Origin: Bacteroidia bacterium
GTDB taxonomy: Bacteria > Bacteroidota > Bacteroidia > Palsa-965
Direction of reading: 5' to 3'
DNA length: 48,080 bases
NCBI GenBank assembly: GCA_035496135.1
Contig: DATJEX010000040.1
Span: forward strand, 1-48,080
Shown: positions 772 through 17,850 of the stretch, piece after piece
Layout: every line of letters starts with the position of its first letter
Position numbering within the stretch: position 1 is the first letter of the stretch
The notes under the pieces: generated by a model
What the model was told of the DNA's origin: nothing
Database searches by the model: none
What the model saw: the letters and a program-made list of their open reading frames with translations, nothing else
Made by a program: the position numbers and the translations under genes

Positions 772-3700
772 ATGGCGGTATCCTTTTCGTTGAAGAAAAT
801 CCTTTCCGGGCGTTTCAGCCTGCTCATCATCGCATTACTTGCTTTCACATTCGCTTATCTTCTCACCTTTTCCTTCGCCGAAAAAAAATCCATTCCCACC
901 ATCGATGGATTTGAAACGACACTGCACCAGAAGGAAAAAGAGGTGCAGACCGAGATCGACACGCTCATCCGTTTCGCGCAGGGAAAAGATTATGAAACGG
1001 TTTTCCGTTTGCGCCCCGATCGCTATAATACACTCTTCAAGGAGCAGGGCCTCGTCCTCTACATTTACCAGGGCGATTCACTGAAATTCTGGAGCGACAA
1101 TTCCGTGGCGGTCGAGAATTACATGAAGGAGGTTTGTCTCGACGACCGGATCGTGGAATTGAAAAATGGTTGGTTCGAGACGATCCACAAGACAGATAAT
1201 TTCGGAAGGACGTACATCGGTTTGATCCTGCTCAAGAATAATTATTCGTATCAGAATCAATACCTCGTCAATTCCTTCCAGCAGGATTTTCAATTACCGC
1301 CCGAAACGGAAATCGAGATCAATAAACCGGGTTCGCCCAATGCGATCAAAGCTTCCGACGGCACTTATCTTTTTTCACTTGAGTTCAAATCTTCCGGTCC
1401 GCCCGAAACACCGATGTGGCAGACCACGCTGAATCTCATCCTGAACATCACCGGATTCATCCTGCTGTTGCTTTTCTTCAATGCGGAATGCAACGGGATC
1501 GCCGGGAATGTCGGGCGAAACTGGTCGCTTGTGATCTACATCGCTGTTGTTGTGCTGCTGCGATTCCTTTCCATTAAAATTCATTTCCCGTCCTCTTTCT
1601 ATGATCTCTCGCTCTTCGGCCCGAAGGATTACGGCGACGCCGATTCATTCTGGAATTCCAATCTCGGAGATTTTCTCATCAACAGTTTGCTGCTGATCAT
1701 TCTCGCGTGGAAGACCACACGTCATCTTCGCGAATGGAAAATTCCGGCCGAACTGAAAGTATGGAAACGCATCGGCGCGGGACTCATTCTCTTCCTTGTT
1801 CCTGCTTTGTGTACGTGGTCCATCAACAGCATGATCATCGGCCTCGTTAAGAATTCCGACATCTCGTTCAACGTGAATGACATTTTCGGCCTTTCACCTT
1901 ACAGTTATCTCGGATTCGTGATCATCGCATTGTTGCTCGCGGCGTTCTTTCTTGTAGCTGATCGCTGTGTGCGCATTTTCCAGCAGGTGGTTCCTTCGAA
2001 TGGGATGCGGTGGAACCTGCTCATCGCCGCCGGACTCATTCAAACCGGAATTCTGCATTTATTCGGTTACGTCGATCTCATCGCCGTACTCTGGCCACTC
2101 GCTGTTTTTCTCATCCTGATGGTTTGGAGAAATGATCCGAATGAAAAAACATATTCCTTCTCGCTCATTGTTTTTCTCGTTTTCGTTTTCGCGTTCTACA
2201 CCACGCACATGCTCCTGAAGCAAAGCCTGCATAAGGAACACGACAGCCGCGAATTGTTCGCCGAGAAAATGGCCGCTGAACAGGATCCGATCGCTGAACA
2301 TTTATTCACTGAATTCGAAAATAAATTACAGCACGATTCACTTTTGCTGCTTTGGTCCAAAACCGGAACTGCCGATTTCAGTGCGTTCGAGAAAAGAGTG
2401 CAGCAACAATACTTCAGTGGTTATTGGGACAAATATGAAACACGCGTCACCTACTTCGATACGATGTGTACGCCGATGCTCAAATCGAATTCGCCGAATT
2501 CCGATAACATCACGAAGTATGATGAACTCATCGAGCACGAAGGTGTTCCGACATTCAGCAATAATTTTTATTTCCTCAACAGCAACACCGGGCGTATCAG
2601 TTACCTGGTGAAACTCATTCTGCAGGATCCCGCGCATGAATCATTTCTCGGACAGGGTACGCTCATCGTGGAACTCGATTCGAAACTGCTCTCGGAAGAG
2701 ATCGGTTTTCCGGAATTACTGCTCGATCGTGAACTCGGCGTGAATCAGCAGCTCGTCAATTATTCCTACGCCAAATATTCAAATGGACAACTCGTGGGAC
2801 ATTCCGGAAAATTCCAGTACCCGCTTACGTCGCAACAATACGGGGCGAAAGGTCCGCAGAGTACATTCCTCGAAACAGGAAGCTGGTGTCACCTCATTTA
2901 TCGCCCCGATGATTCAACGATCGTGATCCTCAGTAAACCGGAAGAAGGATGGCTGAGCATGACGACGAGCTTCTCGTACATCTTTGCCATTTTCAGTCTG
3001 ATGCTCATTCTCGCTTTGTCCATCCGGCAGATCGTCATGGTCGGTTTCACTTTTTCGAATCTCAGTTTCAAATACCGGATCCAGCTCGTACTCGTGATCA
3101 TCGTTCTTGTTTCACTCGCGCTTTTCGGTGGCGGATCCATTTATTACATCCGGCAGCAATACCAGGCGAAGAACGTGGAGATCATTGATGAAAAAGGACA
3201 TTCGGTGGTGCTCGAAGTGATCGATGATCTGAAGGACAGCAAACTCACGCCGCCGTATCGTGATTATGCTACTTACGTTTTGAAAAAACTCTCGAATACA
3301 TTTTTCACCGATATCAACCTGTACGACGCTGAAGGAAATCTTTATGCTTCTTCGCGCCAGAAAATTTTTGACGAAGGACTGGTGAGCAGAAAAATGAACC
3401 CGGAATCCTATCTGCAACTCACGATACGCAAAGAATCGGAATACGTGCACGACGAGAACATCGGCAACCTTGCTTATCTCTCGGCGTATTTCCCGATGAA
3501 AGATCAGAACGGTGCGGTGGTCGCTTATGTCAATCTCCCGTATTTCGCGAAGCAAAGCGATCTGCAGAAAGAAATTTCTTCCTTCCTCGTGGCGCTCATC
3601 AATGTGTATGTGCTGCTCTTCGCATTATCTGTTCTCGCGGCGATCTTCATTTCCAATTATCTCACGCATCCATTGCGGTTGATCCAGGAAAAAATGCGCC

Positions 3701-4509
3701 AGGTGAAACTCGGAAGAAAGTCGGACCAGATCGAATGGAAAAGCAAGGATGAGATCGGAAGCCTCGTGGGCGAATACAACCGCATGATCACCGAACTCGC
3801 GGCGAGCGCGGAATTGCTGGCGCAGAGCGAGCGTGAGAGCGCGTGGAGGGAAATGGCGAAACAGGTCGCGCATGAAATTAAAAATCCGCTTACGCCAATG
3901 CGCCTGAGCATCCAGTTGCTTGAGCGCGCGTATCGCGACAAAGCGCCTGACATCGATCAGAAAGTGGAACGATTGACGAAGACGATGCTCGAACAGATCG
4001 ACACGCTGGCTTCCATCGCGAGTGCATTCTCCGATTTTGCAAAAATGCCGAAACCTTCGAATGAAGAAATGGATCTTCGTTCACTGATGAAAAATGCGAT
4101 CGATCTTTTTCACGAGACCACGGATACCTGCGATTTCAATTTCGAGGATAATAAGATCGACAAGGCGATCATCTTCGCCGATCGGGAACAATTGCTGCGT
4201 GTGTTCAATAATCTTTTCCGCAACGCGATCCAGGCGATCCCCGAAGACCGCAAAGGAAAGATCGATGTGACGCTGACGAAACAGGGAAGTAATTTCATCG
4301 TGGCAGTGAAAGACAACGGCGCGGGAATAGCGGACGAAGTGATCGATAAGATTTTTGTTCCGAATTTCACGACGAAGACAACCGGAATGGGACTCGGGCT
4401 TGCGATGGTGAAGAACATCGTGGAGAGTTGCAACGGAACGATCTGGTTCGAGACAGCGAAGGAAAAGGGAACGACGTTCTATGTGAGTTTTCCGGAATAC
4501 ATTAGTTAA
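772..4509 (+). CDS. Large multi-pass membrane sensor histidine kinase (HAMP-like linker, HisKA, HATPase_c)
   Basis: 1245-aa ORF with many hydrophobic segments in the N-terminal 950 aa. It carries an H-box (HEIKNPLTPM), N-box (NLFRNAIQA), G1 (DNGAGI) and G2 (GMGLGLAMV). Confidence 0.85.
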   Translation: MAVSFSLKKILSGRFSLLIIALLAFTFAYLLTFSFAEKKSIPTIDGFETTLHQKEKEVQTEIDTLIRFAQGKDYETVFRLRPDRYNTLFKEQGLVLYIYQGDSLKFWSDNSVAVENYMKEVCLDDRIVELKNGWFETIHKTDNFGRTYIGLILLKNNYSYQNQYLVNSFQQDFQLPPETEIEINKPGSPNAIKASDGTYLFSLEFKSSGPPETPMWQTTLNLILNITGFILLLLFFNAECNGIAGNVGRNWSLVIYIAVVVLLRFLSIKIHFPSSFYDLSLFGPKDYGDADSFWNSNLGDFLINSLLLIILAWKTTRHLREWKIPAELKVWKRIGAGLILFLVPALCTWSINSMIIGLVKNSDISFNVNDIFGLSPYSYLGFVIIALLLAAFFLVADRCVRIFQQVVPSNGMRWNLLIAAGLIQTGILHLFGYVDLIAVLWPLAVFLILMVWRNDPNEKTYSFSLIVFLVFVFAFYTTHMLLKQSLHKEHDSRELFAEKMAAEQDPIAEHLFTEFENKLQHDSLLLLWSKTGTADFSAFEKRVQQQYFSGYWDKYETRVTYFDTMCTPMLKSNSPNSDNITKYDELIEHEGVPTFSNNFYFLNSNTGRISYLVKLILQDPAHESFLGQGTLIVELDSKLLSEEIGFPELLLDRELGVNQQLVNYSYAKYSNGQLVGHSGKFQYPLTSQQYGAKGPQSTFLETGSWCHLIYRPDDSTIVILSKPEEGWLSMTTSFSYIFAIFSLMLILALSIRQIVMVGFTFSNLSFKYRIQLVLVIIVLVSLALFGGGSIYYIRQQYQAKNVEIIDEKGHSVVLEVIDDLKDSKLTPPYRDYATYVLKKLSNTFFTDINLYDAEGNLYASSRQKIFDEGLVSRKMNPESYLQLTIRKESEYVHDENIGNLAYLSAYFPMKDQNGAVVAYVNLPYFAKQSDLQKEISSFLVALINVYVLLFALSVLAAIFISNYLTHPLRLIQEKMRQVKLGRKSDQIEWKSKDEIGSLVGEYNRMITELAASAELLAQSERESAWREMAKQVAHEIKNPLTPMRLSIQLLERAYRDKAPDIDQKVERLTKTMLEQIDTLASIASAFSDFAKMPKPSNEEMDLRSLMKNAIDLFHETTDTCDFNFEDNKIDKAIIFADREQLLRVFNNLFRNAIQAIPEDRKGKIDVTLTKQGSNFIVAVKDNGAGIADEVIDKIFVPNFTTKTTGMGLGLAMVKNIVESCNGTIWFETAKEKGTTFYVSFPEYIS

Positions 4510-9811: not shown

Positions 9812-10503
9812 AAATTGACGACTTCCATCTCCGCATACTTCGCAGGTTGCAGGATCAGGTAATGCTGCATCACTTCAGTCGCCATGAGTTCACTTTCTTC
9901 TTTGAGTTCCATCAGGTTCATCAGTTGATCCCGGTATGACTTGATGAGTGAGTAGCGATCATTGAAATCCTTCAAGTCACTTGCATCCGCTTTTCCCCAC
10001 TGCATTTCATCCGGATATTTTTTCCGGAACACCATCAATAGATTGGTAAGACTATCGCATTTTGCGTTAAGCAGGTCAATGCTGCGCTGTTGTACGATCT
10101 CATTTGTTCTGCCGATAGACCGGCGTTCATCGCTCATGACATCATTTATCGCCTGGAACAATGTATCTGTCATGGCCACAACCCGATCCTCTTCCGCGTC
10201 ATAAACCTTCATTCTATAAGCGGATGAATCGGGCAACAGATCAATGGAAATATATTTTCGGCACCGGTCAAGATCTGAACTGTCGTGGGGCAATTTCATT
10301 CGTTTCAATGCGAGTGTAAGTGTGCTGTCGCCAAATGCAATTCGTTTGAGGTAAAGAAAGTCTTCCGGGGAATAAACATCTGTCGTTAAGCTGTCGGGAG
10401 ACTGTATGAACGTCATTTCCGCAAAATACATGCGCCGCCCGCTGCATGAGATAATAAGGCTGATAAAACAGGCCAGGAAAATCCGGAAGCAGACTCTTTT
10501 CAT
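9808..10503 (-). CDS. Hypothetical lipoprotein
   Basis: 231-aa ORF with a lipobox-like N-terminus ([14 protein letters not shown]). Its stop overlaps the stop of the convergent gene. Confidence 0.5.
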
Positions 10504-10594
10504 AGTTCAGAACCGCCCCTAAAGTACAAAGTGGAACGATAGCGGTTCCTTTCATTGGTAAAACCTGCCATTCTCCAATTTATTTTCGCCAAAA

Positions 10595-10627
10595 TTTGCT
10601 TTGTACCGTTTTATGCAACTATATTTG
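10595..10627 (+). promoter_or_regulatory. Putative promoter: -33 TTTG (10595-10598) and -7 TATATTTG (10620-10627)
   Basis: Both Bacteroidota promoter elements are present with a 21-nt spacer. They lie 14 nt upstream of the first leader ATG. Confidence 0.5.
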
Positions 10628-10640
10628 TCCCCGGTAAACA

Positions 10641-10709
10641 ATGAACAATAACCAATTCCATACAACCAACGCGATGATGAACAGCATGTGCTGTATGATC
10701 GCGTATTGA
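10641..10709 (+). CDS. Putative leader peptide 1 (22 aa, MNNNQFHTTNAMMNSMCCMIAY)
   Basis: ATG..TGA mini-ORF. Six of the eight codons at 10674-10697 are Met or Cys. It is followed by the terminator at 10731-10766. Confidence 0.55.
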   Translation: MNNNQFHTTNAMMNSMCCMIAY

Positions 10710-10730
10710 CGGAATTGCCACTTGATAAAG

Positions 10731-10766
10731 AAGCTCTTCCGTTAACGCGGAGGAGCTTTTTTCTTT
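10731..10766 (+). terminator. Intrinsic terminator / attenuator 1
   Basis: 11-bp stem: aagctcttccg (10731-10741) pairs with cggaggagctt (10748-10758), with one G-U pair. Loop is 6 nt, followed by a TTTTTTCTTT tract. Confidence 0.7.
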
Positions 10767-10850
10767 GTCCGTCTTCGGTACACTTCGTTACTCAGCCTGA
10801 CAAAGAAAAAAACCAAACAAAGAATAACTGAAAAAGTAAAAGAGACCAAC

Positions 10851-10949
10851 ATGAGCATCCAAACAAACAACTTCCACTCTACTTCCATCTGTATGATGAT
10901 GTGTATGTGCTGCTGCATGAAAAGCGGCCCGGAGGTGAATTGTTGTTAG
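10851..10949 (+). CDS. Putative leader peptide 2 (32 aa, MSIQTNNFHSTSICMMMCMCCCMKSGPEVNCC)
   Basis: ATG..TAG mini-ORF with ten consecutive Cys/Met codons at 10890-10919 and two more Cys codons before the stop. Its N-terminus resembles leader 1 (NNFHSTS versus NQFHTTN). Confidence 0.6.
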   Translation: MSIQTNNFHSTSICMMMCMCCCMKSGPEVNCC

Positions 10950-10974
10950 CGTAAAATAAAATTGCGATGAACAA

Positions 10975-11006
10975 GTCCTCCAGGTAACACTCCGGAGGGC
11001 TTTTTT
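10975..11006 (+). terminator. Intrinsic terminator / attenuator 2
   Basis: Stem 10975-10984 pairs with 10992-11000 (7 bp, then 2 bp with one bulge). Loop is 7 nt, followed by TTTTTT at 11001-11006. Confidence 0.7.
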
Positions 11007-11039
11007 ATTGTCAGCCTTCGACAAGCTCAGTCTGACAAT
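11007..11039. repeat. Short palindromic repeat, TTGTCA..CTTCGACAnGCTCAG..TGACAA family (copy 2)
   Basis: attgtcagccttcgacaagctcagtctgacaat. Same family as 7974-8004. Confidence 0.7.
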
Positions 11040-11086
11040 AAAAAACAGAAGAAACCAAAAAACAAAGCAACATAAGCAACCAACCT

Positions 11087-13252
11087 ATGAACAGCTTCAG
11101 AACAGAATTGGAAAATACATCAACAGCAACTACGCTCGTTGAAAAAGATATCATCGACCTGGCTCAGAAGATCGAGCGCTATAAAAACGGAACCATCGAT
11201 CCGGAAAAATTCCGGAGCCTTCGATTGGCGCGCGGCGTTTACGGACAACGTCAGCAGGGTGTACAGATGGTGCGCATCAAAGTTCCGTATGGAAAGATCT
11301 CTGCCGATCAATTGCGCCGCATCGCGGATATCTCCGATGAATATTCGAACGGCAATCTTCATCTCACCACGCGGCAGGATATTCAGCTGCATCACATTCC
11401 GCTCGATGATACTCCCGCGTTGTGGGAAAAACTCGAAGCAGGATATGAGAACGACGGAATTACTTTGCGCGAAGCCTGCGGAAATACCGTGAGAAATGTC
11501 ACCGCATCTCCGCAAGCCGGGATCGATCCGGAAGAACCGTTCGATGTTACTCCGTATGCCGATGCGCTCTTCCGTTATTTTCTCCGTCACCCTGTAGGAC
11601 AGGACATGGGCCGCAAGATCAAGATCGCATTCTCTTCTTCGGAAAGTGATACGGCGTTTGTCTTCATTCACGACCTCGGATTTATTCCCCGTGTTGAGAT
11701 TGTGAATGGTAAAATTGTCCGCGGATTCAAAGTCGTTATCGGTGGTGGGCTCGGCGCGCAGCCCTTTCTTGCGCAAACCGCTTTTGAATTCCTGGGTGTG
11801 GATGAATTCATTCCGTTCACCGAATCCATCCTGCGAGTCTTCGATCGTCATGGAGAACGGAACAACCGTAACAAAGCGCGGCTGAAATATTTGCTGAATA
11901 AGATCGGGCTGGAAGAATTGTTGAAACTCGTCTCAGAAGAGCGTAAAGCCATTTCATACAAACCGGAATTTCCCGAACAGCCGTCAGCTTCACTCGAAAA
12001 ACAGGAGAATGTCTTCACCACTTTCCGCGTCACCGGAAGTGAAACGTATGATGCGTGGCTGAAAGCAAATGTGTACGAGCAGAAACAGAAAAACTGGTTT
12101 GCAGTAAATGTGAAGATCGCGCAGGGAAATATTTCTTCTGTCGACGCCCGCAAATTCGCGACTGTCGTTGAACGTTATTCCAAAGACGAATTGCGCATCA
12201 CCGCCGGTCAAAGTTTTTTCATCCGCTTCGTTCCGAGAAATGCTTTGCCTGCGCTCTTTCATGAATTGAAGAATATCGGCCTGGCGGAAACCGGCGCGAA
12301 TGCATTCGCAGATATTACGTCATGCCCGGGCACAGATACGTGCAATCTCGGGATCTCCAACAGCACCGGCGTTTCAGCCGAACTGGAAAAAGTGATCCGT
12401 AACGAATTTCCGGAATTGATCGCAGAGAAAAATATCGCTGTCAAAATTTCCGGCTGCATGAATTCCTGCGGACAACACGGACTCGCGCAGATCGGTTTTC
12501 ACGGTAGTTCGGTGAAGGCGGGAAACAATGTCGTTCCAGCGCTGCAACTTGTTCTTGGCGGCGGAGCAACAGGAAGTGGAAGTGGGCGGGTCGCCGAAAA
12601 AGTGATCAAGTTCCCGAGCAAACGTGCCCCGGCTATTCTTCGGTTCATTCTACTGGATTACAAAAATGCAGCGAATGAAAATGAATCGTTCAATGCTTAC
12701 TACGACCGCAAAGGGAAAAATCATTTTTATCAATTGCTCAAACCATTGGCCGACACGAACACGATCGAAGATCACGAGCTCATCGACTGGAACCAGGAAA
12801 CAAAATTCGAGACGGCGATCGGTGTGGGCGAATGCGCGGGCGTGAAAGTGGACCTGGTGTCCACCTTGCTCCTTGATGCGGAAGAAGCGTTGTCATTCGC
12901 GAAACAGAATTTCTCAGAAAAGAAATTCGGAGATGCCGCTTATAAAGCATACAACACGTTCATTCAGTCGGCGAAAGCATTGCTGTTGCTGAAAGAATTA
13001 CCCGTGAACACACAGCACACGCTCATCAGCGATTTTGATACGCATTTCGTTCAGACAGGATCATTCTATTTGCCGAACAGTTTCCGTGAACATGTTTTGC
13101 GCATCAATAAACAGGAAGCAGATGAATTATTCACGCTGAATTATCTCGCCGATGCAGAATCATTTTTCAGTCAATCCAAACATTATCATCAGCAACATCA
13201 TGAAAAACAAGAAGAAACTCCTGAGCTTGTCGAAGGGCTCATCCTCAACTAA
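11087..13252 (+). CDS. Assimilatory sulfite reductase, ferredoxin-type (NirA/Sir family) siroheme-[4Fe-4S] hemoprotein with a C-terminal extension
   Basis: Nitrite/sulfite reductase pattern with the cluster/siroheme cysteines CPGTDTC and CMNSC. It sits in an operon with cobA, siroheme synthase and cysH. Confidence 0.85.
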   Translation: MNSFRTELENTSTATTLVEKDIIDLAQKIERYKNGTIDPEKFRSLRLARGVYGQRQQGVQMVRIKVPYGKISADQLRRIADISDEYSNGNLHLTTRQDIQLHHIPLDDTPALWEKLEAGYENDGITLREACGNTVRNVTASPQAGIDPEEPFDVTPYADALFRYFLRHPVGQDMGRKIKIAFSSSESDTAFVFIHDLGFIPRVEIVNGKIVRGFKVVIGGGLGAQPFLAQTAFEFLGVDEFIPFTESILRVFDRHGERNNRNKARLKYLLNKIGLEELLKLVSEERKAISYKPEFPEQPSASLEKQENVFTTFRVTGSETYDAWLKANVYEQKQKNWFAVNVKIAQGNISSVDARKFATVVERYSKDELRITAGQSFFIRFVPRNALPALFHELKNIGLAETGANAFADITSCPGTDTCNLGISNSTGVSAELEKVIRNEFPELIAEKNIAVKISGCMNSCGQHGLAQIGFHGSSVKAGNNVVPALQLVLGGGATGSGSGRVAEKVIKFPSKRAPAILRFILLDYKNAANENESFNAYYDRKGKNHFYQLLKPLADTNTIEDHELIDWNQETKFETAIGVGECAGVKVDLVSTLLLDAEEALSFAKQNFSEKKFGDAAYKAYNTFIQSAKALLLLKELPVNTQHTLISDFDTHFVQTGSFYLPNSFREHVLRINKQEADELFTLNYLADAESFFSQSKHYHQQHHEKQEETPELVEGLILN

Positions 13253-13334
13253 CATCCCGACTCCCCTCGATGCGGCAAAGAGAGAAACCATCCAGGCCTT
13301 GTTCCGTCGATGTTGGTTACGACTGCGGGCGCGT

Positions 13335-13364
13335 GGTAGGGACACGAAGCTTCGTGTCCCTACC
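13335..13364. repeat. Perfect 30-nt palindrome GGTAGGGACACGAAGCTTCGTGTCCCTACC
   Basis: 13-bp stem with a 4-nt AGCT centre and no following T-tract. It lies between the sulfite reductase gene and cobA. Confidence 0.85.
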
Positions 13365-13431
13365 AATGCCTGGGACCGTTTCTGATCAACATTACCTATT
13401 TCTCACTACTCAATACTAACTACTCATTACC

Positions 13432-14199
13432 ATGAAAAATATACAACCAAGGATCACACTCGTCGGCGCAGGTCCCGGCGATGCAGAACTCATCACACTC
13501 AAAGGCATCAACGCGCTCGGTGAAGCGGATGTCATTCTTTACGACGCACTCGTGAATGAAGAATTGCTGAAATACGCTCCTTACGATTCGAAAAAAATAT
13601 TCGTCGGAAAAAGAGATGGCCAGCATTCTTTCACGCAGGAGCAGATCAACACACTGCTCGTCGACTACGCGTTCACGCACGGACACGTCGTGCGGCTGAA
13701 AGGCGGGGATCCGTTTGTCTTCGGCCGTGGACTCGAAGAACTGGAATTCGCCGAATCGTTCAACATTCCCGTGGGATGGATCCCGGGAATCTCCAGTTCC
13801 ATTGGTGTTCCGGCTTCGCAGGGAATTCCGGTCACACATCGCGGTATCAGCGAAAGTTTCTGGGTGCTCACCGGAAGAAATTCCGAAGGGAAAGTTCCGG
13901 AAGATGTGAAACTCGCTGCACAATCGGAAGCAACAGCTGTCATTCTCATGGGCCTGAAAAAACTTCCCGAGATCGTGAAGATCTACCAGCAACATGGAAA
14001 AGGAAATCTTCCTGTTGCCGTGATCCAGGATGGAACTTTGCCAACAGAAAATGCGGCCATCGGTTCCATCGACACGATCGAAGAAGCGGTGAAGCAGGAG
14101 AACATCAAAGCTCCGGCTGTGATCGTCATCGGAGAAGTCGTACGCAAAAATCCGAGGGCGGCATTCCTGCTCTCCCTCGAGAATCAATTGCTGAACTGA
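13432..14199 (+). CDS. cobA: Uroporphyrinogen-III C-methyltransferase (SUMT)
   Basis: N-terminal VGAGPGDAELITLKG and GGDPFVFGRG motifs of the tetrapyrrole methylase family. Length is 255 aa. Confidence 0.9.
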   Translation: MKNIQPRITLVGAGPGDAELITLKGINALGEADVILYDALVNEELLKYAPYDSKKIFVGKRDGQHSFTQEQINTLLVDYAFTHGHVVRLKGGDPFVFGRGLEELEFAESFNIPVGWIPGISSSIGVPASQGIPVTHRGISESFWVLTGRNSEGKVPEDVKLAAQSEATAVILMGLKKLPEIVKIYQQHGKGNLPVAVIQDGTLPTENAAIGSIDTIEEAVKQENIKAPAVIVIGEVVRKNPRAAFLLSLENQLLN

Positions 14200-14249: not shown

Positions 14250-15827
14250 ATGGGAGTTCCGCTCACTGAAATAAACGTAATTCATAAGGGAAAAAAGGTG
14301 AATTTTGTACTCGAAAAAAACGGACTCCTGGAAACCAAGGAAACGGATACCGACAGCAATGAATTATTCCCGGTCTTTCTGAAACTGGATGAATTGCGCG
14401 TGCTTATTATCGGCGGAGGAAATGTGGCGCTCGAAAAACTGCAGGCGATACTTTCCAACAGTCCGTCCACCGAGATCACGCTCGTTGGTAAAGAGATCCG
14501 GAAAGAGATCGTTGATATTTCCCGTGAATTCACCAACCTCATTATTTTCGAACGCGAAGTTGCGCCGAATGATTTTGAAGAGATCGATGTCGTGTTCATC
14601 GCGGTGAATGATTTCGGTCTTTCGGAAGAACTGGCGGAAGAAGCGCACAGCAGGAACCTGCTCGTGAATGTGGCTGATACTCCCGCGTTGTGTGATTTCT
14701 ATCTTTCTTCCGTCGTACGTAAAGGAGATCTGAAGATCGCCATTTCCACCAATGGAAAATCGCCGACACTGGCGAAACGCCTGCGTGAAGTTCTGCAGGA
14801 AAGTATCCCGGAAGAAACGCAGGATTCCATTGAGCAACTGAATAAACTGAGAACTACGCTCAAAGGAGATTTCGCCGAAAAAGTGAAAGAGCTCAATAAA
14901 GCGACGGCGATCCTGCTCGAACGGAAAGACAAGAAAAAAGTTTTTCGCAAGAGAGTGCGCATGGCGATCCTGTATTCACTTTCCGTGCTCTCGCTTCTCG
15001 TGACAGGACACTTACTCTTCACGTACATTCCATTCCACACGATCGGCGATGCAACCACAACTTTTTTCACGCAATTCGATTCAAAGATCCTGCTGTGGAT
15101 CCTCGGCGGGTTCATCGCGCAGATGATCGACGGTGCGTTGGGAATGGCGTATGGTGTGAGTGCAAGTACTTTTCTCCTCGCTTTCGGAATTTCTCCCGCG
15201 ATCGCGAGTGCGAGCATGCACGCATCTGAAGTTTTCACCAGCGGAACATCTTCGCTTTATTACCTCCGTTATAAAAATATCAACCTGAAATTATTCCGGA
15301 ACCTATTTATTCCGGGAGCGATCGGCGCCGTGATCGGTGCGGTGACGTTGTCGTTATTGAAACAATACATGATCTACGTTAAACCATTCGTCGCGGCCTA
15401 CACGCTTATTCTTGGAGTGCTCATTCTCCGGAAAGCTTTGAAGAACCGAATCATCCGCAAAAAGAAATTCAACAACATCTGGCCACTCGCTGCAACAGGA
15501 GGATTTCTCGATGCGGCCGGCGGTGGCGGATGGGGACCGATCGTTACGTCAACACTGGTTGCAGGCGGAAGAGATCTTCGTTACACCATCGGCTCGGCAC
15601 ATGCCGCAAGAACATTCGTCGCGTTGATGGCAACATTGACGTACACTTTTCTTCTTGGCCTTTCTCATTGGGAAGTGATCGTCGGTTTGGTGATCGGCGC
15701 GATGATCGCTGCTCCGATCTCCGTCTGGCTTTCCACTAAGATTTCTGTCCGCAACGGATTGATCCTTGTCGGATTTCTTGTCATCATCATCAGTCTTAAA
15801 ATTATCATCGGAACTTTCATTCCATGA
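14250..15827 (+). CDS. Fusion protein: siroheme synthase N-terminal domain (precorrin-2 dehydrogenase / sirohydrochlorin ferrochelatase) fused to a TauE/SafE (TSUP, DUF81) anion permease
   Basis: N-terminal half has FPVFLKL..RVLIIGGGNVALEK and NVADTPALCDF..IAISTNGKSPTLAKRLR. C-terminal half has about 7-8 TM segments with Gly-rich DUF81-type motifs. Start set at the first ATG after the cobA stop; the ORF-track start at 13776 overlaps cobA out of frame. Confidence 0.75.
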   Translation: MGVPLTEINVIHKGKKVNFVLEKNGLLETKETDTDSNELFPVFLKLDELRVLIIGGGNVALEKLQAILSNSPSTEITLVGKEIRKEIVDISREFTNLIIFEREVAPNDFEEIDVVFIAVNDFGLSEELAEEAHSRNLLVNVADTPALCDFYLSSVVRKGDLKIAISTNGKSPTLAKRLREVLQESIPEETQDSIEQLNKLRTTLKGDFAEKVKELNKATAILLERKDKKKVFRKRVRMAILYSLSVLSLLVTGHLLFTYIPFHTIGDATTTFFTQFDSKILLWILGGFIAQMIDGALGMAYGVSASTFLLAFGISPAIASASMHASEVFTSGTSSLYYLRYKNINLKLFRNLFIPGAIGAVIGAVTLSLLKQYMIYVKPFVAAYTLILGVLILRKALKNRIIRKKKFNNIWPLAATGGFLDAAGGGGWGPIVTSTLVAGGRDLRYTIGSAHAARTFVALMATLTYTFLLGLSHWEVIVGLVIGAMIAAPISVWLSTKISVRNGLILVGFLVIIISLKIIIGTFIP

Positions 15828-16471
15828 ACATAGAAGAGCTGAACATAAAATATACTGCGTTGCGTCCGGAAGAACGGGTTAAGGAATTGTACAAAGATTT
15901 CAGCAAGATCCTTTTCACTTCTTCGTTCGGAACTACGTCTGCTATTCTCATTCATCTCTTCAGCAAAATAAATCCTGCGCAGAAAATATTCTTCCTCGAT
16001 ACCACTTATCATTTCGCCGAAACGATTCAATACAAGGATCAACTAACGGAATTATTTCACCTGAATGTGGAAACTGTTCTGCCGGAAGACTGGAAGAACA
16101 GTTTCACGCGCGAAGATCAAACCTGGTCGAAAGATCCTGATCTCTGCTGTTCCATCAATAAAGTGGAGCCGCTCGACAAAATAAAACCCGGTTACGGGAT
16201 CTGGGTTTCGGGCCTGATGCAATCGCAGAATTCGTACCGGAAGAAAATGAACATCTTCGAGGAAAAGGAAGGCATCATCAAATTCTACCCGATCATCGAC
16301 ATGACGTCCGAACAGGCGAGTGATTACATCAAGCAGAATAGTTTGCCCGCGCATCCGCTTCTCGCGCACGGATTCGCTTCGGTCGGTTGCATTCATTGCA
16401 CCGTGAAAGGAAGAGGCCGTGAAGGAAGATGGGTGAACAGGAATAAAACGGAGTGTGGATTACATCTTTAG
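15824..16471 (+). CDS. cysH: Adenylyl-sulfate / phosphoadenylyl-sulfate reductase (thioredoxin-dependent), Fe-S cluster type
   Basis: C-terminal catalytic ECGLH motif. The CC (DLCCSINK) and CxxC (GCIHC) pairs are characteristic of APS-type reductases. The start overlaps the upstream stop as ATGA. Confidence 0.88.
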   Translation: MNIEELNIKYTALRPEERVKELYKDFSKILFTSSFGTTSAILIHLFSKINPAQKIFFLDTTYHFAETIQYKDQLTELFHLNVETVLPEDWKNSFTREDQTWSKDPDLCCSINKVEPLDKIKPGYGIWVSGLMQSQNSYRKKMNIFEEKEGIIKFYPIIDMTSEQASDYIKQNSLPAHPLLAHGFASVGCIHCTVKGRGREGRWVNRNKTECGLHL

Positions 16472-16603
16472 TACGAACTACGAAATGGGCGAATATGCGA
16501 AATACAGATATACAAATGATGCGAAATGCGGAAGATCGACCAGTATCTTTGCGTCTCTTCGCGATTTCGTATTTAGCGTATTCGCCCATTTCGTAGTTCG
16601 TAC
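16471..16603. repeat. Long intergenic hairpin element, GTACGAACTACGAAAT-terminus family
   Basis: 35-nt arms at 16471-16505 and 16569-16603 are reverse-complementary: about 25 perfect bp plus imperfect pairs. Inner segments pair further. Confidence 0.8.
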
Positions 16604-16626: not shown

Positions 16627-17850
16627 ATGAAAGACAATAAAATCAAAGTCGCGCTCTTCGGATTCGGATGTGTAGGACAAGGGCTGTACGATGTACTTAA
16701 TCATTCCGAAGTGCTGCAGGCGGATATCAGTAAGATCTGCGTGAAGGATCCGTCGAAGAAGAGAACGGTGGAAGCAGGACTCATCACGTTCGACAAGAAT
16801 GATATCCTGGACCGAAACGATCTGGATGTAGTAGTGGAAATGATCAACGACACCGAGGAAGCTTTCGCTATTGTGAAACGCGCGATGCAGAACAATACTT
16901 CCGTGGTGAGTGCGAGCAAAAAAATGCTGGCGACTTACTTCGAGGAATTGTATCATTTGCAACTTGAGCACAATGTCGCGCTGATCTACGAAGGTTCGGC
17001 CGGTGGAAGTATTCCGATCATCCGCACGCTCGAGGAATATTATGACAATGAGTTGCTCAGTTCTTTGCGCGGAATTCTGAACGGAACGACAAATTACATT
17101 CTCACGAGAATGGAACTGGAGAGCAAAGACTACAGTGAAATTCTGAAAGACGCACAGACGAATGGTTTCGCGGAAATAGATCCATGGCTCGACGTCGCCG
17201 GATTCGACACGCTTTATAAATTGTGTCTGCTCAGCGTTCACGCGTTCGGTGTGATCCTCAAACCGGATTCTGTGCTCACACTCGGAATTCAGAATGTGAC
17301 ATTCAACGACATTCGTTACGCGAGAGAAAAAGGATTGCGCATCAAACTCGTGGCGAGTGCTGCGAAAGTCGGAGACTCCGAAGGAGCGGGCAAATTCCGC
17401 GTTTATGTGATGCCGCGTTTTGTAAGTCCTAAAGATGAACTCTTCAAAGTGCTTTACGAATACAATGGCATCGAAGTAGAAGGAGCATTCTCCTGCACGC
17501 AGACGTTTACCGGCAAAGGCGCAGGAAGTCATCCAACCGGAAGCGCGGTGCTCTCCGATATTTCAGCACTCACGTACGATTACAAATATTCCTACAAGAA
17601 ACTGAAGAAGCTGAAGAATACGCTCGGTGCGAATTACAGCGGAGAAGCGTTGCTCGATACAGATTTCACCATCCGCGTTTACATCCGCTACAACACCGAA
17701 GCGGAGTTGAAGGATTTCGACATCAAACATGTGGTGGAAGAATACCGTTCACCGGGAATGAATTTCATCATTGCAGATGTGGCGTTTGCTTCGCTGTACA
17801 AACAGAAGGGGAATAAGGAGTCGAAGGTGTTTGTGTGTGAAGTAGAGTGA
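16627..17850 (+). CDS. hom: Homoserine dehydrogenase
   Basis: NAD-binding N-terminus (KVALFGFGCVGQG) and the GILNGTTNYILT motif. Length is 407 aa, with an ACT-like tail. Confidence 0.88.
   Translation: MKDNKIKVALFGFGCVGQGLYDVLNHSEVLQADISKICVKDPSKKRTVEAGLITFDKNDILDRNDLDVVVEMINDTEEAFAIVKRAMQNNTSVVSASKKMLATYFEELYHLQLEHNVALIYEGSAGGSIPIIRTLEEYYDNELLSSLRGILNGTTNYILTRMELESKDYSEILKDAQTNGFAEIDPWLDVAGFDTLYKLCLLSVHAFGVILKPDSVLTLGIQNVTFNDIRYAREKGLRIKLVASAAKVGDSEGAGKFRVYVMPRFVSPKDELFKVLYEYNGIEVEGAFSCTQTFTGKGAGSHPTGSAVLSDISALTYDYKYSYKKLKKLKNTLGANYSGEALLDTDFTIRVYIRYNTEAELKDFDIKHVVEEYRSPGMNFIIADVAFASLYKQKGNKESKVFVCEVE

Follow-up and report, generated by a model that had tools for sequence, protein, structure and literature searches.

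Predicted tandem leader-peptide attenuators with mixed cysteine and methionine codons upstream of a sulfate-assimilation operon in Bacteroidota

The 48,080-nt contig DATJEX010000040.1 of a Bacteroidia bacterium (assembly GCA_035496135.1), analyzed at its full length and referred to here as the window, carries genes for sulfate assimilation and siroheme synthesis, the first of which starts at position 11087 of the forward strand. The segment ahead of it (10595-11086) very probably constitutes a transcribed leader with two classical ribosome-mediated transcription attenuators in series, as judged from sequence comparison and modelled folds. A first-pass annotation of the same DNA, made from its letters, had proposed a -33/-7 promoter, two mini open reading frames (mini-ORFs), a hairpin with T-tract after each of them, and complementary segments allowing alternative helices; all of these are present in the window sequence.

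The promoter is of the Bacteroidota type (forward strand, like all leader features below). Its -33 element TTTG (10595-10598) was found by sequence reading, and a 21-nt gap separates it from the -7 element TATATTTG (TAnnTTTG, 10620-10627), which ends 13 nt 5' of the ATG of the first leader ORF. The leader has no Shine-Dalgarno sequence and a very short 5' untranslated region (UTR). Leader ORF1 (unit U1, 10641-10709) comprises 22 codons, encodes MNNNQFHTTNAMMNSMCCMIAY and is homologous to the U1 peptides of relatives, e.g. MNNNFTYTLSTINSPMMCCMMCI. Its translation places the regulatory codons Met12, Met13 and Met16-Cys17-Cys18-Met19 at 10674-10697. Leader ORF2 (unit U2, 10851-10949), identified by translation and by a match to the U2 profile described below, comprises 32 codons and encodes MSIQTNNFHSTSICMMMCMCCCMKSGPEVNCC. 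The uninterrupted series of ten Cys/Met codons claimed for it at 10890-10919 matches base for base and corresponds to codons 14-23. The best 8-residue segment contains six Cys/Met in ORF1 and eight in ORF2. Mini-ORFs with at least five Cys/Met in 8 residues occur only three times on both strands of the window, and a T-run follows leader ORFs 1 and 2 only. As a side observation, the gene caller used on the source contig (JGI metagenome 3300045391) annotated a 58-codon antisense ORF (10742-10918, reverse strand) and missed both leader ORFs.

Both window hairpins are canonical intrinsic terminators with a G+C-rich stem followed by six T's. The U1 terminator, GCTCTTCCGTTAACGCGGAGGAGC-TTTTTT (10733-10762; -15.7 kcal/mol), has its stem-loop at 10733-10756 and its T-tract at 10757-10762, and the U2 terminator, GTCCTCCAGGTAACACTCCGGAGGGC-TTTTTT (10975-11006; -12.6 kcal/mol), at 10975-11000 and 11001-11006, respectively. 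The U1 antiterminator 5' strand TTGACGGAA (10706-10714) spans the TGA stop codon and pairs with TTCCGTTAA in the terminator 5' arm (10737-10745). The CGGAA/TTCCG complementarity proposed for this unit exists, but CGGAA (10710-10714) follows the TGA directly and not after one intervening nucleotide. For U2, the antiterminator 5' strand GCCCGGAGGT lies within ORF2 (10927-10936) and pairs with GTCCTCCAGG (10975-10984). The heptamer CCGGAGG was located exactly where it had been reported, once in the antiterminator (10929-10935) and once in the terminator (10992-10998), and both copies are complementary to CCTCCAGG (10977-10984). An inner antiterminator helix joins TTGTT (10940-10944) with AACAA (10970-10974); the UUGUU strand of this helix is formed by the two C-terminal Cys codons of ORF2. 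Such one or two extra C-terminal Cys codons are frequent in U2-type peptides, which end in NCC, KCCY, HYCK, LKC or MCS directly before the stop (window 10941-10946; relatives L006 3826-3909, L001 2886-2996, L084 1425-1532, L088 2289-2399 and L095 2261-2368).

The leader (10634-11010) folds markedly better than its shuffled versions (z = -5.3). We folded the leader of the window with a ribosome mask on the regulatory codons, with a mask at the stop codon, or with none (naked RNA). With a ribosome on Met16-Met19 of U1, the antiterminator hairpin forms (-14.5 kcal/mol) ahead of synthesis of the terminator 3' arm, and with a ribosome at the stop the terminator is the sole possible structure (-22 kcal/mol). 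In the minimum free energy folds of untranslated RNA, CAATTCC (10653-10659) pairs with GGAATTG (10711-10717) and takes the antiterminator away, like the classical 1:2 pairing; we regard CAATTCC as a predicted anti-antiterminator. In U2 with a stalled ribosome, pairing of CCGGAGG with CCTCC.GG (10977-10984) together with the inner helix reaches -19.5 kcal/mol in total, and with a ribosome at the stop the antiterminator is lost and the terminator alone remains. The first-pass annotation had left its model to be checked by folding with and without masks, and the alternative helices do switch as an attenuator requires. Its claim that a ribosome at the stop masks the antiterminator strand in both units while a stalled one frees it agrees with the computed geometry and folds, except that the mask over U2 is partial.

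Relatives were collected by scans with the reductase protein, giving 80 genome loci and 80 metagenome loci of Bacteroidota type whose reductases (Sir, gene sir) are 54-62% identical; they are cited below by locus number. A mini-ORF was called Cys/Met-rich when it contained at least five Cys/Met in an 8-residue segment, and the upstream zone was defined as the 900 nt before the reductase gene. In the 80 genome loci, 44 such mini-ORFs were detected in 71 kb upstream of sir and 29 in 1447 kb elsewhere, i.e. an enrichment of about 30-fold over control sequence (1.45 Mb; about two per 100 kb). Most of these 29 'background' mini-ORFs are further leaders on the operon strand, situated before other genes of the same operons: before an aldo/keto-reductase gene ahead of sir, before a CysD-like gene, or between sir and cobA. 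A terminator lies 5-85 nt past the stop in 93 of 123 Cys/Met-rich mini-ORFs (76%) versus 58 of 1121 other mini-ORFs (5%). Examples are found in Pedobacter (peptide MNFNFIPKQLTAKQMMCCCCKTQ; terminator TGCTTCTC...GAGAAGCA-TTTTTT) and Chitinophaga (peptide MGYKVSMMMNMCMCCWEHSTD; terminator GCCTCCG...CGGGGGC-TTTT), and many metagenome-assembled genomes (MAGs) of Flavobacteriales and Bacteroidia carry a tandem pair of units, each with its own terminator. Like the two of the window, about 90 distinct leader ORFs of the collected loci fall below the size that gene callers take up.

Antiterminators were analyzed in 88 distinct units by pairing the stretch from the end of the codon run to the terminator with the terminator 5' arm. 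The own stretch pairs with this arm better than its own shuffles (mean z = -2.33; 97% of units below 0). For specificity, all combinations of stretches and arms were re-optimized and arm stickiness was removed. The own arm was preferred over unrelated arms (median rank 0.047), and all 13 arm classes without a common 6-mer ranked below 0.5 (p = 1.2 × 10−4). Compensatory pairs are seen in GGAAAGCC/GGCTTTCC (L001, L084, L087), GGAAAAGCC/GGCTTTTC (L083), GGAAGAG/CTCTTCC (L088), TGAAAGAC/GTCTTTCA (L152) and CCGAAGGG/CCCTTCGG (L066), as well as in AACGGA/TCCGTT (L031) versus CACGGA/TCCGTG (L079). In a MAFFT alignment of 31 units (alignment A1; 500 shuffles and slid controls), the antiterminator helix was 75.6% paired, with six of eight pairs changed on both sides and a covariation of 0.199 versus 0.142 (reached by 0/500 shuffles), counts that lean towards structure because the sequences were cut at positions picked by duplexfold. 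The terminator helix in the same alignment was 90.3% paired, with a covariation of 0.331 versus 0.206 (0/500 shuffles), and every slid control was lower. The rank tests of own against unrelated arms, unlike A1, are unbiased. Energy-based tests were used for U1-type units because MAFFT (alignment A2) set their antiterminators out of register. Enrichment, terminator association and covariation in Bacteroidota loci together bear out the conservation of mini-ORFs and hairpins upstream of sir orthologues, on which the first-pass annotation had made its model depend.

The position of the antiterminator relative to the ribosome is also constrained. It starts at a median of 12 nt past the last codon of the run (interquartile range 9-13), just outside the leading edge of a stalled ribosome. 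Counted from the first base of the stop codon, its start lies 0-9 nt further 3' in 57% of units when the Cys/Met frame is read, compared to 2% each for frames +1 and +2. Likewise, in 76 of 88 units read in the Cys/Met frame, a ribosome that has arrived at the stop would reach over the antiterminator and leave the terminator clear, compared to 23 of 88 in frame +1 and 41 of 88 in frame +2.

These observations bear on a translation-independent RNA switch, in which a metabolite or an RNA-binding protein would toggle the helices, with the UGY/AUG repeats serving as a binding motif instead of codons. The alternative helices it shares with attenuation are real, but the runs consist of ATG and TGY triplets only, in a single frame, and the stop precedes the antiterminator closely in that frame alone. 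Variation of UGY versus UGY cannot by itself tell coding from sequence-motif constraint, and Pontibacter-type relatives use a SAM-I (S-adenosylmethionine) riboswitch in the same leader; beyond the run and the helices, however, no conserved part of the leader is able to form an aptamer. In the window, Rfam 15 gave no match at gathering thresholds, and at E ≤ 10 the region 10400-11200 returned noise only, with miRNA models and an antisense Phe_leader (21 bits) as best matches. Rfam leader families (Bacteroid-trp, His_leader, Phe_leader and others) reached at best 15-21 bits against thresholds of 49-55, neither the SAM aptamer (RF00162) nor the T-box had a covariance-model match in the window leader, and there was no Rfam match at the Pedobacter, Chitinophaga or MAG leaders. 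We consider a switch of this kind improbable.

Also quite improbable, in our estimate, is a reading that keeps ribosome sensing but not intrinsic termination as its output: as in the mycobacterial poly-Cys small ORFs, stalling would change the access of Rho, the stability of the mRNA or the initiation of translation at the next gene, the hairpins being leaky pause or processing sites. Translational cysteine attenuation does exist (bioRxiv 10.1101/834739), and terminator-less Cys ORFs occur in relatives, both in Pontibacter-type leaders and between sir and cobA (see below). The window hairpins, in contrast, are canonical terminators that cannot occlude the next start codon, because they lie at least 81 nt away from it, and both terminator and antiterminator helices covary. 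A further point for such an output is that, in readthrough RNA of the window leader, an A-tract further 3' pairs with each T-tract: TTTTTTCTTTGTC/GACAAAGAAAAAA after U1 (10757-10811; z = -3.8) and TTTTTTATTGTCAG/CTGACAATAAAAAA after U2 (11001-11045; z = -5.9). In strength, these stems of 13-14 bp (-15.5 and -13.9 kcal/mol) rank first among the pairings of this kind in the 88 units. As a conserved part of the device, such post-terminator U:A hairpins were ruled out (mean z = -0.4 in relatives); speculatively, in readthrough transcripts they might keep the A-rich region where the next ORF is initiated free of pairing with the U-tract.

Functional Cys-rich peptides (metal- or redox-binding, or precursors of ribosomally synthesized and post-translationally modified peptides) with the hairpins as ordinary gene-end terminators are very improbable: although the ORF position is conserved and N-terminal motifs (e.g. 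MNNNFTYT and MNFNFIP) persist in some clades, the peptides diverge freely between clades outside the Cys/Met run, vary in length from 10 to about 50 residues and match no Pfam or NCBIfam family (nine leader peptides, E ≤ 10), no modification or export genes are adjacent, a gene-end terminator needs no covarying antiterminator, and the residues past the run track the nucleotide needs of the antiterminator helix (e.g. ATGCGGAAG, read as M-R-K), which argues against a function of the peptide.

Two leader-plus-terminator units in tandem upstream of the operon were detected in 17 loci besides the window, and they fall into two types. In the U1 type, the peptide stops right past the run (...MMCCMMC[AI]) and the antiterminator lies 3' of the stop; U2-type peptides are longer and have the antiterminator within their ORF. 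Using nhmmer, profiles built from relatives only matched window U1 at 10636-10762 (E = 4.3 × 10−9) and window U2 at 10845-11008 (E = 1.4 × 10−17), with much weaker cross-hits. The pair is old and not a local duplication, because the relatives' profiles recover each type and cross-hits are far weaker. The suggestion in the first-pass annotation that the similar N-termini reflect a duplication gives way here to two distinct, anciently paired types, and a recent local tandem duplication was ruled out by the type-specific matches. Putative attenuators arranged two in series are a conserved design. A division of labor with one Cys unit and one Met unit was likewise ruled out, as both codons are mixed in both units of all tandem loci.

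Promoter motifs show the same asymmetry. The TTTG-(21 nt)-TAnnTTTG arrangement of the window also occurs 5' of the first leader ORF in L001, L006, L023, L033, L084, L094 and L095. An exact TAnnTTTG at most 45 nt 5' of the ATG was found for 46 of 72 first or single units and for 0 of 16 second units, versus 1.9% of random windows, and there is no promoter motif 5' of window ORF2. Unit 2 would be reached only via readthrough of unit 1, because the promoter motif precedes the first unit only. In Pedobacter (18 units; L041, L043, L049, L054, L073 and others, at about 3825-3845), TAnnTTTG ends exactly 4 nt before the leader ATG. The Pedobacter leader mRNA would be leaderless or nearly so, recalling the mycobacterial leaderless poly-Cys small ORFs (sORFs).

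Downstream of the leader, the first structural gene (11087-13252) encodes a siroheme-[4Fe-4S] reductase of the NirA/Sir family (Pfam NIR_SIR and NIR_SIR_ferr), which we take, from its context, to be the assimilatory sulfite reductase. It is followed, on the same strand, by (i) a uroporphyrinogen-III C-methyltransferase gene (cobA/cysG C-terminal domain, 13432-14199); (ii) a gene fusing a siroheme synthase N-terminal domain to a TauE/SafE membrane domain (14250-15827); (iii) cysH, encoding phosphoadenylyl-sulfate (PAPS/APS) reductase (15824-16471); and (iv) hom, encoding homoserine dehydrogenase (16627-17850), 155 nt past cysH. The domain matches agree with the gene order named earlier (sulfite reductase, cobA, siroheme synthase::TauE, cysH, hom). 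The genes downstream of the leader make the sulfide and the siroheme for Cys and Met synthesis; hom is a putative member of the operon, as the gap before it holds a 40-nt inverted repeat (16466-16505/16569-16608, 90% complementary, 63-nt spacer). The spacer of this repeat contains TATCTTTG (16544-16551, forward strand), which resembles a TAnnTTTG -7 box, and the repeat could form a large RNA hairpin or be a small promoter-bearing element for hom. The Sir-family protein itself has a C-terminal extension of about 130 residues (residues ~590-721) with a marginal HEPN match in Pfam (E = 10−4, 22.9 bits); the extension is common to Bacteroidota homologues, in which matches reach residue ~700.

For the attenuation reading, the following sequence of events is proposed. 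The single Bacteroidota-type promoter would start an RNA with a very short 5' UTR, and a ribosome would translate ORF1 as RNA polymerase proceeds. With plentiful Cys-tRNA and Met-tRNA, the ribosome would arrive at the stop and cover 10706-10714, the terminator at 10733-10762 would form and transcription would end. When charged tRNA-Cys or tRNA-Met is scarce, it would instead stall on 10674-10697, where it would also block the sequestering of the antiterminator by CAATTCC/GGAATTG; the freed antiterminator strand would capture the terminator 5' arm, and the polymerase would read through. A second test would follow at unit 2, with the run at 10890-10919, the antiterminator at 10927-10936 and the terminator at 10975-11006, and only transcripts past both checkpoints would extend into sir, the genes of siroheme synthesis and cysH. 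We infer that the leader ORFs are translated and that ribosomes stall on Cys as well as on Met codons, and the two units would presumably multiply to give a steeper response.

Every feature of classical leader-peptide attenuation that can be tested in silico was found in the leader of the window and, independently, among its relatives. Several points, in addition to the bias of A1, weigh against the attenuator interpretation. The U2 antiterminator also arises in naked RNA as long as the 3' arm has yet to be synthesized, and for this reason the 'no translation' state of U2 is not clearly terminating; a ribosome at the U2 stop hides only about half of the CCGGAGG strand. Taken alone, the window duplexes are modest relative to shuffles (p = 0.025 for U1 and p = 0.115 for U2), and the own-arm ranks of the window units are 0.18 (U1) and 0.14 (U2). 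By strict criteria, a leader with terminator was detected upstream of sir in only 75 of 160 loci. The first structural gene scores best as 'NirA family', and its NCBIfam matches are under the curated cut-offs. Finally, the source organism is uncultured and its closest Sir homologue is just 62% identical; near-identical leaders for a fine-scale alignment are lacking because Sir identity does not exceed 62% in the genome and metagenome scans.

Other arrangements were noted in relatives. In nine loci of the Pontibacter/Botryobacter type, a SAM-I aptamer (RF00162, 60-75 bits) ends 8-10 nt 5' of the ATG of the leader ORF (L007 3498-3731; L012 3425-3642; L015 3373-3596; L016 3394-3611; L025 3465-3687; L029 3522-3747; L037 3390-3608; L047 3320-3552; L129 1838-2066). 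This ORF has 35-39 codons and ends in an almost pure Cys run, ...CCCCCC(SC). The 3' strand of the P1 stem, UAUAAAUU, lies within an A/U-rich stretch directly 5' of the ATG. The stop codon falls within a small hairpin, UUCCUGUUAAGGAA, past which there is no simple terminator; sir begins 250-450 nt downstream. Such an arrangement may represent a riboswitch-gated leader peptide. Met accounts for 45% of the runs in the 88 terminator-type units, compared to 8% in these nine loci. That Met codons are gone where a riboswitch reads SAM supports, by inference, dual sensing of Cys and Met in leaders of the window type.

A third kind of Cys-rich mini-ORF lies between sir and cobA in relatives, e.g. MKIIMCLHKACCCCCCCWLIHN and MKKYIVHRKYCCCFCMCMR, mostly without a T-run terminator (L013 2577-2642; L021 6120-6179; L023 6096-6164; L024 6134-6202; L027 6135-6206; L031 6121-6192; L034 6120-6176; L044 4970-5041; L085, L110 and L138). 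Alternative hairpins follow these mini-ORFs and extend into the A-rich sequence preceding the cobA ATG, a possible sign of translational control. A third leader of this kind is absent from the sir-cobA spacer of the window, which holds only a perfect 16+16-nt palindrome (TGGTAGGGACACGAAG/CTTCGTGTCCCTACCA, 13334-13365) that is not followed by a T-run. In loci with a gene for an aldo/keto-reductase (Pfam PF00248) or for a CysD-like protein ahead of sir, the Cys/Met leaders are located before that gene instead (L001 2710-2996; L004 2233-2331; L014 2838-2906; L010 695-968; L019, L020, L026, L028, L057 and L062 at about 2940-3030). Their peptides often end in ...QRCC or ...RRCC directly before the stop, adjoining the antiterminator ACGGAAGG.

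A broader view would be that Bacteroidota run a phylum-wide, ribosome-read sulfur regulon, with mixed Cys/Met terminator leaders before sir, aldo/keto-reductase and cysD-like genes and between sir and cobA, often as two-stage series, replaced in Hymenobacteraceae by a composite in which a pure poly-Cys leader ORF starts right next to the SAM-I P1 stem. We see about an even chance for this view. If true, it would comprise the first leader-peptide attenuator reading Met codons and the first riboswitch-gated leader peptide.

To our knowledge, control of sulfate assimilation in Bacteroidota is essentially uncharacterized; the sulfur regulators described in other phyla are CysB/CymR-type proteins as well as S-box and T-box RNAs. 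The leader would give sulfur assimilation in Bacteroidota its first concrete mechanism of regulation, testable in culturable genera such as Pedobacter and Chitinophaga, and would be an entry to a larger ribosome-read regulon. With it, leader-peptide attenuation would come to include Cys codons and, for what seems to be the first time, Met codons. In addition, the analysis draws attention to about 90 distinct small ORFs that are unannotated and escape gene callers, and it points to a natural composite of riboswitch and leader peptide in relatives. The family is conserved and, apparently, undescribed, a modest variant of a textbook mechanism distinguished by mixed Cys and Met codons, serial attenuators, an SD-less leader with a short 5' UTR and the control of a sulfate-assimilation operon.

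Classical leader-peptide attenuators are known for the trp, his, leu, thr, ilv and phe operons of Proteobacteria and, in Bacteroidota, as the Bacteroid-trp motif; sensing of several amino acids has precedents in thr (Thr/Ile) and ilv (Ile/Leu/Val). With these systems the window leader shares a short ORF with clustered codons for the end products, an intrinsic terminator with a mutually exclusive antiterminator, a stop codon sited such that a terminating ribosome masks the antiterminator, and the apparent sensing of more than one amino acid. Unlike them, it would sense Cys plus Met, a terminator-type leader with Met codons not having been found in our literature search, and its operon serves sulfate/sulfite assimilation and siroheme synthesis. 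Further differences are the two complete attenuators of distinct type in series behind one promoter, the SD-less leader with its very short 5' UTR, and the lack of sequence or covariance-model similarity to Rfam leaders.

In the full-text literature, a search that left subscription-only papers outside, we found no Cys/Met leader of Bacteroidota, no leader of a sulfite-reductase operon and no Met-codon leader. The statement in the first-pass annotation that a Cys/Met-codon leader had not been described for this operon holds to that extent, but Cys-codon leaders are known outside Bacteroidota, and two of these are the closest precedents. In Actinobacteria, Cys-codon leader peptides act on translation and have no terminators (PMC1262725; bioRxiv 10.1101/834739), and in Rhodobacterales cysS is preceded by the uORFC-8-2 motif, an upstream ORF with only two Cys codons ahead of an intrinsic terminator, which has been proposed as a ribosome-mediated attenuator (PMC8632094). 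The principle is therefore not new; new are the family, the mixed Cys and Met codons, and the operon.

As in the actinobacterial poly-Cys sORFs, pausing on a Cys run in an unannotated sORF would report cysteine supply to sulfur and cysteine genes, several loci occur per genome (the 'ribulon' idea), and the mRNA has the sORF at, or very close to, its 5' end. There, however, the stalled ribosome opens a structure sequestering the ribosome-binding site, without terminators, whereas the window has a covarying terminator and antiterminator. The window runs also mix Met with Cys, the phylum differs, and there is no sequence relationship. With regard to the leaderless criterion of the mycobacterial sORFs, the distance from the end of the -7 box to the ATG is 13 nt in the window and 4 nt in Pedobacter. 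The uORFC-8-2 motif resembles the window units in that a Cys-codon upstream ORF is followed by an intrinsic terminator (PMC8632094), but it is a single unit controlling a tRNA synthetase in Alphaproteobacteria, and the window has no match to it. With the SAM-I (S-box) riboswitch, finally, the window shares premature termination in the leader of Met/Cys genes; unlike SAM-I, it has no SAM aptamer, and Met status appears to be read through the Met codons themselves.

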